Positions 3,585 to 21,895 of a stretch of 64,000 bases of DNA are shown piece by piece. Source of the DNA: Phormidesmis sp. GTDB taxonomy: Bacteria; Cyanobacteriota; Cyanobacteriia; Leptolyngbyales; Leptolyngbyaceae. The notes below the pieces were generated by a model, which was given only the letters and a program-made list of their open reading frames with translations, had not been told where the DNA came from and ran no database searches. Both the position numbers and the translations under genes were made by a program. The stretch spans positions 192,786 through 256,785 of the forward strand of contig CBDICO010000001.1 in assembly GCA_965277365.1 (NCBI GenBank). Direction: 5' to 3'. Within the stretch, counting starts at the first letter, position 1. Every line of letters starts with the position of its first letter.

Positions 3585-4022
3585 ATGATCTCAGACATTA
3601 CCGAGAAGCTTTTGGCAGCTAAATCAGGAAAAGGGCTAAGTTTTGCTGATTTAGAAACGACGATCGGACGCGATGAAGTTTGGATCGCCGCTTTGTTTTA
3701 TCAGCAAGCCAGCGCCTCTGACGACGAAGCCACCAAATTACTCAACGCTTTAGGACTCAGCCTCGATCTCGTCGCTACTTTAACGGCATTTCCCGTGAAA
3801 GGATTAGGTCCGATCGTGCCCACCGATCCCTTAATTTATCGCTTCTACGAGATCATGCAGGTCTACGGAATGCCGATGAAAGAAATCATTCATGAAAAAT
3901 TTGGCGATGGCATTATGAGCGCGATCGATTTCACTTTAGATATCGACAAGATAGAAGATCCCAAAGGCGATCGCGTCAAAGTCACAATGAATGGAAAATT
4001 CTTAGCCTATAAAAAGTGGTAA
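3585..4022 (+). CDS. cynS: Cyanate hydratase (cyanase)
   Basis: [25 protein letters not shown] and GKFLAYKKW motifs. Confidence 0.96.
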
Positions 4023-13288: not shown

Positions 13289-13361
13289 GGGGAGTTAGCT
13301 CAGTTGGTAGAGCGCTGCGATCGCACCGCAGAGGTCAGGGGTTCGATTCCCCTATTCTCCA
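13289..13361 (+). tRNA. tRNA-Ala(CGC)
   Basis: Acceptor GGGGAGT/ATTCTCC; anticodon stem CTGCG/CGCAG around loop ATCGCAC; T-loop GGTTCGATTCC. Confidence 0.93.
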
Positions 13362-13372
13362 TTTATATTTTC

Positions 13373-13517
13373 TGTCCATTAAAGAATTAATCAGCAGTTT
13401 TAAAGCATTAATTTCCGAAAACTGCTGAAATGCTGATTCTTTCGTCTTGCAACACAATTTTTATGTAGAATACCTCGTCTTTATTCCCAAATAGCCAGTT
13501 TTAAAGCATTAATTTCC
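13373..13517. mobile_element. Putative transposon end of a type V-K CAST (tRNA-proximal)
   Basis: TGT at 13373, 63 nt after the GTA PAM (13307-13309); perfect 22-bp direct repeat CAGTTTTAAAGCATTAATTTCC at 13395 and 13496, plus a related TTAAAGAATTAAT next to the TGT. Confidence 0.7.
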
Positions 13518-13584
13518 AAAATTTGGCTGGAAAGTTATACCGAGCTGAATTGGGAGCCTAACCCAGTAAGACTTTTAGACTTTT

Positions 13585-13619
13585 TGCAGTGCGATCACAG
13601 CGCTCCTTCCAACCTACCC
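13585..13619 (-). CRISPR. Delocalized homing crRNA unit (truncated repeat plus tRNA-Ala-matching spacer)
   Basis: Minus strand GGGTAGGTTGGAAG followed by GAGCGCTGTGATCGCACTGCA, matching tRNA-Ala 13310-13330 at 19/21 (16/17 over the first 17 nt) with GTA 5' of the target. Confidence 0.88.
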
Positions 13620-13676
13620 TTGATCTGTTCAGATTATCTAAGTTGCCGAGCGCAGAGCAAAGCAACTGATTAAAAG

Positions 13677-13859
13677 CTTTCAATTTACTTGCTGCTAAAA
13701 AGGCGATCGCAACGATGCCCTGAGGATGGCGAACCACACGAGAGTCTTTCTTTCAACCTACCTGCTGCTAAAAAGGCGATCGCAACAAATCAGCTGCAGT
13801 CGATCTCAACGTTGCCACGGTTCTTTCAACCTACCTGCTGCTAAAACGGCGATCGCAAC
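13677..13859 (-). CRISPR. Type V-K-like CRISPR array: 3 repeats, 2 spacers of 36 nt
   Basis: 37-nt repeat GTTGCGATCGCCTTTTTAGCAGCAGGTAGGTTGAAAG at 13750-13786, with variants at 13823-13859 (1 mismatch) and 13677-13713 (3 mismatches); the 3' GGTTGAAAG end is typical of Cas12k repeats. Confidence 0.9.
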
Positions 13860-14065
13860 TGATGCCGCTCAACTGCTGATGTGGTCTTGCTCCAATTTGT
13901 AAAACTGACCAACCTCAAATATCGTTGGTTGCTGTCCCTGAAATAGGTGGCAAATTTACAAAACGGAAATGCTCTCACATCATAAGAACCGGCGACAGCA
14001 ACGCTACTGGGCATTTTGGCAAACGTCCCAGGAATTTTGCTCCCGCTTCGGTTTGCCAGGTCGAT
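13860..14065 (-). promoter_or_regulatory. Probable CRISPR leader
   Basis: Lies 5' of the first repeat; minus-strand CCGAAGCGGGAGCAAAATTCCTGGGACGTTTGCCAAAATGCC resembles recalled cyanobacterial leader motifs. Confidence 0.5.
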
Positions 14066-14070
14066 GGTTT

Positions 14071-14144
14071 GGGTAGGCTCAACCCTTGCTTGGGGCGATT
14101 TGGTAGCTGCCATGACAAGTAAACCCTGTATCCTTAATAATGAG
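14071..14144 (-). ncRNA. 3' remnant of a V-K tracrRNA, cut by IS6
   Basis: Minus strand TAAGG...GCTACCAAATCGCCCCAAGCAAGGGTTGAGCC shares block order with the recalled ShCAST tracrRNA 3' end (UAAGG...GCUACUGAAUCACCCCCGAUCAAGGGGGAACCC); expected position. Confidence 0.55.
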
Positions 14145-14967
14145 GGTTGTGTCACAAAAATGGTAGGGTGGGGAGTCTAAATTTTCTCTGACCTTAACCT
14201 AAATGGCATCCCAATCCCTGTTTAAGTGACGGCATTTCTTGCCCGAAATCATTGTGTTGAATGTGCGATGGTACTGTCGCTACGCTCTGAGCTACCGGGA
14301 TTTAGAGGAGATGATGGCGGAGCGAGGGGTGGAGGTGGATCATTCCACGATTCACCGATGGGTGTTGAGCTACGCGCCAGAACTGGACAAACGAGTTCGA
14401 CCCCACCTGAATCCGACGAACGATTCGTGGCGGGTGGATGAGACGTATATCCAAATCAAAGGAGTGTGGAAATACCTGTACCGAGCGGTGGATTCGCTCG
14501 GCAACACGTTGGACTTCATGCTGAGTGCAAAGCGGGATGGCAAGGCAGCCGCCCGGTTTTTCCGCAAAGTGCTGAAAGCGACTCATACTCAAACTCCACG
14601 GGTAATCACGGTCGATAAGAACGCTGCCTACCCAGTGGCAATTGAAGCGTTGAACGCAGATGAAACGCTGGCAACAGAGACCGAATTACGGCAGAGCAAG
14701 TACCTGAATAACATCATCGAGCAGGATCATCGCAACATCAAGCGATTAACAAAGCCAATGATGGGATTTGGGTCGTTTAACAGTGCAAGACGTACCTTGA
14801 GAGGAATTGAAGCGATGAGTATGATTCGCAAAGGACAAGTAAAGGGAATCAGCCAAGGGGAGAGTGTTTCTCAAGCGAAGTTTATTGAACGAATCTTCGG
14901 AATTAGCGCTTAACGGAATGCGAACGAGATACTTCGTTTGTCACTAAAAAGTATTTGCGACACAACC
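14145..14967 (+). mobile_element. IS6-family element (same family as 9339-10168), premature stop
   Basis: IRs GGTTGTGTCACAAAA / TTTGCGACACAACC; ATG at 14203 with TGA at 14227 (codon 9); DDE motifs intact downstream; no TSD. Confidence 0.93.
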
Positions 14968-15804: not shown

Positions 15805-16020
15805 CTAGGCACCTGGAAGGACGATCGTTCGAGGACGGCTCCTCTGAGGCTTGAAAGCGGGTTGGGTGTCCACGATCTTAGGGCATCGCTCGGTGGTCGG
15901 AGACTGACTTATCGACCGATCTCGCGATTGCAAGACGATTTCCGCTCTCTCTCTTGCAACTGGGTGTAGCGTTGAGGTTCCATACGGCTGAGTTTTGAGA
16001 ATCTGCTTATTGGTGGTCAC
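15805..16020 (-). CDS. Small hypothetical protein overlapping the integrase 3' end
   Basis: 71-aa ORF with a GTG start, co-oriented with the integrase. Confidence 0.35.
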   Translation of the reverse strand: MTTNKQILKTQPYGTSTLHPVARERAEIVLQSRDRSISQSPTTERCPKIVDTQPAFKPQRSRPRTIVLPGA

Positions 16021-17008
16021 CCTCGCTCTCGCCGATCGCCTTCAAATACGCCTCCCCTGCTGCCTGCTTAAACACGCCTTTGGTGTAGCGTTCAAACACC
16101 TGATCGCTCTTAATCCCCATCAACTCCTTGCCAAACAGCGGGTCTACCCCTCGGCGAGTCACCTCCGTCCCAAACGTGTGCCGGAACCGATGCGGATGCA
16201 TATTCTCTACCCCCGAGCTCGCCCCCAGCTTCTTCACCATCTTATGCAGTCCCTTGTAGCCCAACCGTTTTCCCACACTCTTTGGGTCTTGTGCCAAAAA
16301 CATTGGACTTTCTGGCATCGGCTCGAACACCCCACTCTGCTGCCGTCGCCACTCTAGATAGGCTTCCAAATGCGATCGCGCCTCCCGACTCAGCGGCACC
16401 TCACTCACGTTTTGCCCCTTGGATCGATGCACCGTCAAAATCTTGCCATTCCAACTTCCGACATCCAGCGCGGATGCCTCCGATGCCCGTAGCCCATGAC
16501 TGAGTACCGCCACGATCGCCCGATCGCGCACCCGCGTCCGCTCGTCCAACTCCAGCACCGCCCAAATTTCACTCAAGTCTTCCGCCTCAATGTGCGCGGC
16601 TTGCGGTTCCGGTTGCCGCTCCAAGTCGATCGCATCGGTCGGCAAGGGCTGATTCATCGGGTAGCCATTGCTGCGTCTGAGCCAGCTATAGAATGATCGC
16701 AGCGTATTGAGGGCATGATTCACCGAAGTTGGTTTCAATCCCTTCAGCTTCAGATCCCGTCGATATTTGCCGATATGGCTGGGAGTCACATCGAGCCAAG
16801 ACTGACCCGACCAAGCCGCAAAGCGTTGGAGTTGCCCGCGATAGGTGCGCTGCGTATTCTCTGCCTTCCCTGTCTGGCGTAAAAATTCCTCAATCTGCCA
16901 GTGCCTCAGATCGGGGGGTTCTTCCCAGTGGGGTGTTTCCACCTTTCCCCCCTTTATGGAGACAATCACGATCGGCAAAACGGGTTCAGCGGGTGCAGGA
17001 TTCATCAC
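16007..17008 (-). CDS. Tyrosine recombinase (XerC/D-like, with an N-terminal SAM-like domain)
   Basis: RDRAIVAVLSHGLRASE, RSKG, HPHRFRHTF and ERY motifs. Confidence 0.93.
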   Translation of the reverse strand: MMNPAPAEPVLPIVIVSIKGGKVETPHWEEPPDLRHWQIEEFLRQTGKAENTQRTYRGQLQRFAAWSGQSWLDVTPSHIGKYRRDLKLKGLKPTSVNHALNTLRSFYSWLRRSNGYPMNQPLPTDAIDLERQPEPQAAHIEAEDLSEIWAVLELDERTRVRDRAIVAVLSHGLRASEASALDVGSWNGKILTVHRSKGQNVSEVPLSREARSHLEAYLEWRRQQSGVFEPMPESPMFLAQDPKSVGKRLGYKGLHKMVKKLGASSGVENMHPHRFRHTFGTEVTRRGVDPLFGKELMGIKSDQVFERYTKGVFKQAAGEAYLKAIGESEGDHQ

Positions 17009-17033
17009 AAAATCAGAGGTTGGGTGATTTTCA

Positions 17034-17061
17034 GGTGCAGATAATTTCTCTTATCTCTATC
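17034..17061. other. dif-like 28-bp recombination site upstream of the recombinase
   Basis: GGTGCAGATAA-TTTCTC-TTATCTCTATC (11-6-11); the left arm matches the E. coli dif XerC arm GGTGCGCATAA at 9/11. Confidence 0.55.
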
Positions 17062-17129
17062 AGAGTATTCTCAGAATAATAGCAAGTATTAGATAAAAGC
17101 CTTTGCTTACCAGCGATAATCAGGGAAGT

Positions 17130-17501
17130 TGTACAGTGCCAAATTAAGGCTCTTCCGAGCTTTTGGTGATCCAGAATTTTGAGCAACCGAAACTCAGCAG
17201 GTGCGTTGGATGAATCTGAAATTACGCCACCTCAGCTACGAGTTCGCTCAATTTTGAGGATGTTGTAGAACATAGATCACCAAAAGCTTGGAAGAGCCCA
17301 AATTAAATGACATCGAGACAAATTCGTGTCGCTGAGCAAACCCCTCTCCGTTGCAGGGTTGCAGAGAGAGTTCGCTCAGCAGCTTAGCATCAGGTCAGCA
17401 GGATGGACAAGCTGGCTTTAGGCGGAAAAGCAAGCCAGATCTAGCCTTGCTCCTTTAATGACACTAATGTGTCTTCACGACCAATAAAAAGTCACTGTAC
17501 A
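17130..17501. mobile_element. Gene-less mini-element with V-K CAST/Tn7-like ends
   Basis: TGTACAGTG...CACTGTACA termini with internal GAC-N-GTC TnsB-type sites at both ends; flanks GAAGT/CCTGG do not form a TSD. Confidence 0.75.
17148..17298. mobile_element. 151-bp MITE inserted in the mini-element end
   Basis: 24-bp IRs GGCTCTTCC(G/A)AGCTTTTGGTGATC (1 mismatch); 8-bp TSD CAAATTAA at 17140-17147 and 17299-17306. Confidence 0.9.
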
Positions 17502-17560
17502 CCTGGTTTGAACCTGCGATGATTGCACGTTTGACGATTTAGGATTGCAGGTCGCTACCG

Positions 17561-18001
17561 CTACTGGCACCCAAAAACGGAAACTTGATACGCAGTATTT
17601 CGGTCGCCTGTAATCCGAGTATTAATCTGATAAGGTTGCCGATTCGTCGGCGTTCGAAAAGACTGGTCGTAGCGGTAGAAACGTTTTGCCTCGATTGATC
17701 GCGACACCGCCTTCGCGGATGAACCATCATTGTATTTGAGATTCACTTCGATCCCGTAGTGAGAATTGTTTTCAGGAATTGCTTGAGCGATATAACTATT
17801 AAAATGGGTGCCAGTGGGCACGGCAAAATCTGTGTTTGCGTTGGTGTTGTTTAGAGTAATGACCTTCCGAATCAAGCGCTGATGGGTGGAAACTTCCCTG
17901 AAGTAAGTGCAGCTTCGGGGTTGCGCCTGCGCGGGTTGATACAGCATCACGGCTGCTATAACCATAGAAAGTCCGGCTGGAATGCTTAAAAACTTTTTCA
18001 T
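17561..18001 (-). CDS. Secreted hypothetical protein
   Basis: Signal peptide ending PAQA-QP; beta-rich ~120-aa mature part. Confidence 0.75.
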   Translation of the reverse strand: MKKFLSIPAGLSMVIAAVMLYQPAQAQPRSCTYFREVSTHQRLIRKVITLNNTNANTDFAVPTGTHFNSYIAQAIPENNSHYGIEVNLKYNDGSSAKAVSRSIEAKRFYRYDQSFRTPTNRQPYQINTRITGDRNTAYQVSVFGCQ

Positions 18002-21063: not shown

Positions 21064-21895
21064 GGTATTGTCAACTTAACTGGAACGTAGAATAATCGTA
21101 CTGATCCCATTTAGATCGCGACTCCTTGCTCATGTACTCCCGTCACCGCTTTCCTAACGAAATCATTAGCTATTGTGTCTGGCTTTATTACACGTTTCCC
21201 CTGAGCTACCGAGACATCGAGAAAATGATGCGGTATCGGGGGATTGAGGTGACTTACGAAACGATTCGGGAGTGGTGCCAGAAATTCGGGCAGCAGTATG
21301 CCAATCAGCTTCGGCGCAAACGTCCTTACATTACCGATAAATGGCACTTAGATGAAGTGGTCGTGACGATCAAAAAGGTGCAATATTATTTGTGGCGAGC
21401 AGTGGATTCTGAGGGGAACGTGCTGGACGTACTGCTGCAACGGCGGCGAGATACAGAAGCAGCCAAGCGATTCTTCCGCAAACTGTTGAAAAAACAAGGC
21501 TTCGTGCCACGGGTAATCGTCACCGACAAGCTGAAGAGTTACGAAGCGGCGAAGAAACAGGTGATGCCGAACGTAGAGCATCGAGCGCACAAGGGATTGA
21601 ACAATCGAGCGGAGAACTCGCATCAGCCCACACGAGTGCGGGAACGGCGAATGCGACGATTCAAATCCCCGGGGCAAGCGCAACGATTTCTCTCAGCTTT
21701 TGGACCGATTCGAGATCACTTCCACCCGAAACAACATCACCTCACCGCCAAACGCTATCGCGAACAACTGCGCCAACGCTTTCAAGATTGGCGAGAAGTG
21801 GTTTGTCTAAATTCTGCTGCATGAACTGAGTGCCCCTGCCGATTCGGGAATAATTGTGCTGAATTCTGAACAGACCCGGTTAAGTTGACAGTACC
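21064..21895 (+). mobile_element. IS6-family element, apparently intact (transposase 21126-21824)
   Basis: IRs GGTATTGTCAACTTAAC / GTTAAGTTGACAGTACC; WHLDEV, VIVTDKL and NNRAENSHQ motifs; no TSD. Confidence 0.94.

Follow-up and report, generated by a model that had tools for sequence, protein, structure and literature searches.

Type V-K CASTs, RNA-guided relatives of Tn7, have neither TnsA nor a resolvase, and in E. coli they give rise to cointegrates (PMC11406308); how native hosts handle these cointegrates has been stated in a review to be an open question (PMC11406308). In ShCAST, the left end carries three TnsB sites and the right end five, of which the terminal pair on either side takes part in the strand-transfer complex (PMC9527255). 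Two kinds of smaller element invite comparison. Laboratory mini-CAST and mini-Tn7 donors consist of two ends around a passive filler and are moved only in trans, the minimal ends reported for ShCAST being roughly 110-155 bp. Bacterial MITEs of DDE transposons, such as the minis of the Tn3 family, are short, non-coding and dispersed, carry the terminal repeats of their autonomous partner and take their transposase in trans. We found no description of natural non-autonomous derivatives of V-K CASTs in the literature, papers on cyanobacterial Tn7-like elements and CASTs included, of which our coverage is incomplete.

We analysed a 64-kb window of the genome of Phormidesmis sp. ("the window" always meaning this whole stretch of 64,000 nucleotides, and "own genome" the genome that contains it), in which a first-pass annotation had singled out positions 17130-17501 as a gene-less mini-CAST, both of whose ends are fused, and as a candidate CAST-mobilised MITE. 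The dispersed homologs and the V-K-type ends described below argue for that reading, and neither of the outcomes that the annotation had named as fatal to it, a unit confined to this one site or ends unlike TnsB sites, was observed. We consider it probable that 17130-17501 is one old copy, no longer active, of a 213-bp non-autonomous element that resembles a MITE and derives from a V-K CAST of the TGTACAGTG type; a copy-in route of transposition may be the reason for its missing target duplications (TSDs).

With natural V-K CASTs this unit, which we call a mini, has in common the terminal TGTACAGTG(A/C)C(A/T)AATTA and the adjacent pair of ~19-bp TnsB-type sites. A 5-bp target duplication like theirs can be read at locus L122 and, split over two copies, at a GMC oxidoreductase gene of the relative G009. 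It differs from them in having no genes, guide RNA or array, in not lying at a tRNA attachment site, and in that a TSD around the same copy is almost always absent. The two TnsB-type sites at each of its ends correspond to the terminal pair of ShCAST, but they are fewer than the three and five found there (PMC9527255), so that its competence as a donor is putative. Like the laboratory donors it would be moved only in trans, but it occurs in nature, in many copies, and evolves as a family, and its ends of ~45 bp are much shorter than theirs. The minis are thus a candidate natural minimal donor (~45 bp per end, 213 bp in total) that could be useful for shrinking the donor ends of CASTs. From the bacterial MITEs they are set apart by their likely derivation from an RNA-guided, TnsA-less relative of Tn7 and by their flanks, since classic MITEs are flanked by TSDs and the minis are not.

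Anatomy of the window copy

The termini of the window copy are perfect 9-bp inverted repeats 372 bp apart (TGTACAGTG at 17130-17138 on the + strand and its reverse complement CACTGTACA at 17493-17501), present as the first-pass annotation had claimed (Table 1). The 9-mer TGTACAGTG occurs only twice in the window, both times at these termini (0.17 copies expected from shuffles), and six times in the 5.37 Mb of the own genome, these two included. When the nested MITE is taken out together with one CAAATTAA, exactly 213 bp are left, and both end sequences that the annotation had quoted are reproduced. Each end of the reconstructed unit consists of the terminal 9-mer followed by two repeats of ~19 bp. 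The flanks, GAAGT and CCTGG, show no 5-bp duplication, which had also been seen at first pass, and the unit is present as a single copy in the own genome. It contains no ORF and no array, and is therefore not an autonomous V-K CAST, to which TnsB, TnsC, TniQ, Cas12k, a tracrRNA and an array belong. Having no genes, it would be mobile only with a cognate TnsB in trans (with TnsC, and with TniQ/Cas12k or by an untargeted route).

Table 1. Features of the 17130-17501 locus and its surroundings (window coordinates; a dot marks a feature without strand)
Feature	Position	Strand	Description
IS6-truncated stump, different V-K CAST lineage	13373..14150	-	TGTCCATTAAAG end, short guide, array, part of tracrRNA
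Tyrosine-recombinase gene	16007-17008	-	
Left junction	17009..17129	.	Upstream region of tyrosine-recombinase gene
Left end, outer part	17130..17147	+	Terminal TGTACAGTG and first half of TnsB-type site L1
CAAATTAA copy 1	17140-17147		Target duplication of nested MITE
Nested unrelated 151-bp MITE	17148..17298	.	24-nt terminal inverted repeats GGCTCTTCCGAGCTTTTGGTGATC; splits site L1
Left end, inner part	17299..17332	+	CAAATTAA copy 2 (17299-17306), remainder of L1, site L2
Site L2 GAGACAAATTCGTGTCGC	17315-17332	+	
Non-coding interior of the mini	17333..17457	.	Holds conserved hairpin
Right end	17458..17501	-	Site R2 (17458-17476); site R1 and terminal CACTGTACA (17477-17501)
Right flank	17502..18001	-	3' region and gene of 146-aa secreted-looking protein

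The inner part of the left end holds the most conserved columns of the 213-bp family. In the alignment of that family, the interior hairpin GCTGAGC...GCTCAGC (columns 25-31 paired with 68-74; ~17331-17337 and ~17374-17380 in the window) shows compensatory changes among the copies, a pair that is GC in 10 copies being CG in 4, and another that is CG in 10 being UA in 3. The hairpin could be a structure of the DNA or of the RNA, or what remains of an older palindromic insert. In the interior, GCAGGGTTGCAGAG resembles the end of a V-K repeat, by eye only, as a guide-like reading would have it.

The nested MITE is flanked on both sides by the 8-bp CAAATTAA and has two further copies in the own genome (96% and 91% identity), and is thus unrelated to the mini. 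The relative G001 has a shorter MITE of this family inserted at the same CAAATTAA site (G001:C87; L073:1508-1632). More generally, MITEs with GGCTCTTCC... inverted ends interrupt ends of the V-K CAST type at three or more sites that look independent: besides the window and the G001 site just given, they occur in G020:C63 (L090 ~3780-3800, upstream of tnsB) and in G009:C11 (L215:1343 onward). Every one of these insertions falls within the AT-rich core of the TnsB-type site that is outermost (CAAATTAA, CAATTTAT, AAATAAAAG). The GGCTCTTCC-type MITE family may prefer CAST ends, and hence inactivate them.

A dispersed family with ends of the V-K type

The motif TGTACAGTG(A/C)C(A/T)AATTA was found almost exclusively in cyanobacteria. 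Six genomes have tnsB, tnsC and a small tniQ 300-360 bp beyond it, and these genes show 35-50% identity to their V-K counterparts in the own genome. In Scytonema sp. HK-05 and Nostoc flagelliforme, the motif closes an element after a Cas12k gene (881 and 973 bits on the NCBIfam model NF038191) and a V-K array, the repeats of which finish in GGTTGAAAG. In G009:C85, an end of the same type comes after the 3' part of cas12k, a tracrRNA-like stretch and an array of seven repeats. These natural ends consist of a terminal 9-mer, a first site, a gap of 2-3 nt and then a second site with the pattern GACAAATTnnTGTC; when the two mini ends are stacked with them from the terminus, with no formal alignment, their outermost 45 nt show the same arrangement. 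As they follow the pattern of natural tnsB- and cas12k-linked ends, with 5'-TGT...ACA-3' inverted termini and repeats of ~19-20 bp matching those of TnsB- and Cas12k-linked elements, the mini ends are, on their sequence, of the V-K CAST type. The first-pass annotation had likened them to the ends of ShCAST with their tandem TnsB sites; our comparators were natural Cas12k-linked ends, those of ShCAST being known to us by published description only, and against elements with tnsB-tnsC-tniQ or with cas12k and a V-K array the match is site for site.

A search of 40 related genomes with the part right of the nested MITE gave full-length matches in G001, G003, G004, G009 and G019. From end to end (positions 1-213), the reconstructed 213-mer could be aligned with at least 15 copies, which lie on different contigs and are 74-95% identical to it (five in G001, five in G003, three in G009 and one each in G004 and G019). 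The flanks of these copies all differ, and the similarity ends exactly at TGT...ACA. More copies of the family are present in four other cyanobacterial assemblies.

This distribution bears directly on the alternative that the first-pass annotation had left standing, namely that a full TGTACAGTG-type CAST lost its interior in place and that its two ends were fused by the deletion. Such a scar would agree with the single copy in the own genome, the missing TSD, and the surroundings of the copy, an island of degraded mobile DNA beside a tRNA gene. However, a 213-bp unit with an identical internal junction is found in five relatives, at no fewer than 15 loci unrelated to one another, and also in assemblies further afield, so that independent deletions cannot be its source; an in-place deletion would, moreover, have retained the TSD. 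Full-length homologs at unrelated loci thus lead us to reject the deletion remnant, which we regard as highly improbable.

The minis are short and non-coding, have ends of a type identical to those of an autonomous element, and, in the relatives, are dispersed over unrelated sites (the own genome having its single copy), all of which is in line with MITEs; a TSD around the copy was found in 1 of 32. It is very likely that the minis are a non-autonomous family derived from V-K CASTs. A scan for the end motif with one genome per species, from which 118 loci were taken, yielded 15 gene-less units of 199-326 bp with both ends, coming from Nostoc, Coleofasciculus, FACHB strains and Leptolyngbyaceae. 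The units of Nostoc, Coleofasciculus and the FACHB strains do not have the interior of the 213-bp family. In G001, a 199-bp subfamily has its ends in common with the 213-bp family and a completely different interior, and within the 213-bp family itself the outer 45 bp are more conserved (0.94) than the interior (0.82-0.89). Orthologous sites in two species carry copies with 76-92% identity to the window 213-mer. Some copies of the family are therefore old and vertically inherited, and much of the spread may be ancient.

The 213-bp and 199-bp subfamilies of G001 adjoin the same repeated flank, in the same orientation and 6 bp apart (L031:1463-1620, L050:320-480 and L072:1683-1840). This common flank hints at a preferred or guided landing site.

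Target duplications and junctions

The first-pass annotation had anticipated dispersed copies of the 213-mer with 5-bp TSDs. The dispersed copies were there, but the TSDs, with two exceptions, were not: a same-copy duplication was found in only 1 of 32 minis (GCTTT, L122), and one more is split over two copies. Across the 32 minis, the left and right 5-mers agree on average at 1.38 of 5 positions, against 1.48 of 5 in shuffled pairs, and since there is no excess of partial matches, eroded TSDs are not the answer. The full-length CAST of the own genome, taken as a control, has kept its TSD (TCATA), unlike the minis. Among the mini copies of G001 and of G003, no left 5-mer equals the right 5-mer of another copy.

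The second duplication is in G009, where two 100% identical mini copies on different scaffolds each adjoin one half of a GMC oxidoreductase gene. The frame at one copy matches GMC_oxred_N up to the junction and the frame at the other matches GMC_oxred_C. Both junctions carry GTGGT, and the two halves, each unique in G009, together with one GTGGT give a frame of 573 codons that aligns in a single HSP with its own-genome homolog. We read this site as a true insertion with a 5-bp duplication. As assembled, the GTGGT duplication is split over two copies, which fits a cointegrate or a replicative inversion; the case rests on two scaffolds of a metagenome-assembled draft genome, and if the scaffolds had been mis-joined via the identical 213-bp repeat, or if a crossover had taken place later, the site would look no different. 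In the inverted identical pair of G001:C140, the 5-mer pattern expected of a replicative inversion was not seen.

One might argue that the minis are ordinary simple insertions, the 5-bp TSDs of which were later lost by mutation, by recombination between copies or through assembly errors. The TSD at L122 is indeed perfect, many of the assemblies are fragmented MAGs, and the G009 pair is possible as a simple insertion followed by a mis-join or a later crossover. Nevertheless, the level of 5-mer similarity with no excess of partial matches, the lack of any cross-copy match between left and right 5-mers within G001 and G003, and the TSD kept by the full-length CAST of the own genome all speak against this explanation, which we consider unlikely.

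The upstream region of the tyrosine-recombinase gene continues, in the corresponding units of G003 and G001, past a point (...GGGAAATT then TTTGCAGCC...) at which in the window it is cut exactly at the left terminus of the mini; it runs at least 90 bp further in G003:C125, G001:C44 and G001:C79, and stops at 17129 in the window. In G003:C125, a truncated mini lies 730 bp beyond the matching point. A degenerate left tip considered for that copy was rejected, its first 10-11 nt being flanking gene sequence, so that the copy is truncated. On the other side of the window copy, the 146-aa protein of the right flank has no Pfam match, and the ortholog of its gene in G001:C87 (93%) is inverted and lies 760 bp from the orthologous left-end fragment. 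With the same left tip and a member of the MITE family at the same CAAATTAA site, G001:C87 seems to hold the ortholog of the copy in the window. In G002 and G004, a similarity beginning at the right boundary is due to a local repeated motif of the 3' region and was discarded as uninformative. Two copies of G001, C138 and C140a, have 481 bp of right flank in common (98%) and unrelated left flanks, and the two flanks of the copy in G003:C170 map 102 kb apart in the own genome. These are the patterns expected if the ends of the element attack nearby DNA, with an old flank kept, a new one gained, and loss or inversion at the tip; none of them is proof alone, and the genomes compared are diverged and mostly drafts.

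The tyrosine-recombinase gene and its conserved upstream region form a multi-copy unit in the genus, at 77-88% identity (window 16007-17129; own genome C1:561000-562500; G001:C44, C58, C33 and C79; G003:C125). The unit is probably part of another mobile element.

A copy-in mechanism might account for the missing TSDs. V-K systems have no TnsA and hence transpose by the copy-in, or replicative, route. The 213-bp unit would keep only the cis-acting parts of the transposon, that is the terminal 9 bp and two ~19-bp TnsB-type sites per end, around ~125 bp of filler. A cognate TnsB, loaded by TnsC, would pair the two site pairs of the mini and join its 3' ends to the target 5 bp apart, and replication would then copy the element. 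In the case of a CAST of 10-40 kb, recombination between the long copies would resolve the product to a simple insertion with a TSD; with a 200-bp mini, such resolution would be rare, and fusions (cointegrates), adjacent deletions and inversions would persist. Of the two flanks of a new mini copy, one would thereby be old and the other new, with no same-copy 5-bp TSD. The replicative products of IS26, Tn3 and Mu likewise have one old and one new flank, a target duplication split over two copies, and losses at the tip; unlike them, the minis would owe their products to a Tn7-family TnsB, and have no resolvase or res site. In our view the chances that the replicative route explains the missing TSDs are about even. 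A broader proposition, which we advance only tentatively, is that gene-less V-K minis are widespread in cyanobacteria, that their lack of TSDs is a natural record of unresolved replicative transposition, and that two TnsB sites per end are a natural minimal end set.

The TSD-less junctions of the minis would then offer a genomic read-out of copy-in transposition, and of the rearrangements that come with it, in native hosts. If this is true, unresolved minis mark deletions, inversions and replicon fusions, which bears on the handling of cointegrates by TnsA-less V-K CASTs. In the annotation of cyanobacterial genomes, the minis may account for orphan TGTACAGTG ends and for some of the breakpoints of rearrangements. 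Taken alone, the window copy is an ordinary fossil, and the interest lies in the mini family and its junctions.

Transposase supply and resident CASTs

The own genome has one Cas12k (C12:338662-340983) and one intact tnsB-tnsC-tniQ set (C12:373029-376468). Both belong to a full-length V-K CAST of 38.9 kb at C12:337803-376691; it has TGTCCATTAAA ends, a perfect 5-bp TCATA duplication, and its array-side end beside the 3' end of a tRNA. Two further tnsB fragments (C8 and C12) carry TGTCGCGTTCC and TGTCCATTAAAG ends. In the window, the stump at 13373 adjoins tRNA-Ala (13289-13361), and its end is of the same type as that of the intact CAST. The claim made at first pass that the mini ends differ from the end at 13373, and so represent a second CAST lineage, therefore holds, the resident CAST and the stump both having ends of the TGTCCATTAAA type. 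No TnsB matching TGTACAGTG ends was found in the own genome, all tnsB genes and fragments of which go with other end types. As the own genome encodes no TnsB for this type of end, and as the MITE splits the outermost TnsB site, the window copy is dead, an orphan and a fossil.

The situation is similar in the relatives. An intact TGTACAGTG-type CAST was not found in G001, G003, G009, G010 and G020, which have stumps or tnsB-less ends only; the stumps of the TGTACAGTG lineage include a tnsB-less left end in G001:C56 and the cas12k-array end of G009:C85. With only stumps in the mini-bearing G001, G003 and G009, no driver was found for a recent mobilisation. A candidate element of G010 (2690532-2705027) was rejected, its 9-mers being chance occurrences with no TnsB sites.

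The lack of a cognate tnsB in the genomes richest in copies raises the question of whether TnsB was involved in the spread at all. A mini CAST of single origin could have been carried passively on duplicated segments and on mobile elements, or by homologous recombination, and the long flanks common to some copies, the existence of old orthologous copies, and the multi-copy integrase unit adjoining the window copy would be understandable on these terms. Passive carriage is nevertheless hard to reconcile with boundaries that are exact at TGT...ACA against many different flanks, with the 5-bp duplications at the G009 GMC gene and at L122, with ends conserved above the interior, and with independent subfamilies that keep the ends only; we judge it improbable, and infer that TnsB moved the mini.

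Concerning the choice of target, no tRNA gene was found within ~1.5 kb of 17 mini copies, and the window copy lies 3.8 kb from tRNA-Ala. The spacers of the G009:C85 array (the one array compared) do not match the flanks of the G009 minis. Among them only spacer 4 gave a hit, in DNA flanking its own CAST end: nucleotides 1-16 of this spacer (L092:1432-1447) match a stretch 49-64 bp outside the array-side end of the element, on the opposite strand (L084:1513-1528). Spacer 4 thus resembles a homing guide that has its place in the main array.

Ends of the TGTACAGTGAC type occur in close pairs in G010 and L123. In G010, two of them stand back to back with 2 bp between (G010:C1:5433404-5433427; L063:19404-19428), like tandem insertions, and one such end lies 7 bp after tRNA-Arg(CCG) (L062:1995). 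At L123:2604-2654, two inward-facing termini of this type enclose 51 bp. In the window, two transposase genes of the IS6/IS240 family (14239-14913 and 21126-21824) bracket ParE/ParD-like genes, the recombinase, the mini and a GIY-YIG cassette. This bracket may be a composite arrangement or a source of local deletions.
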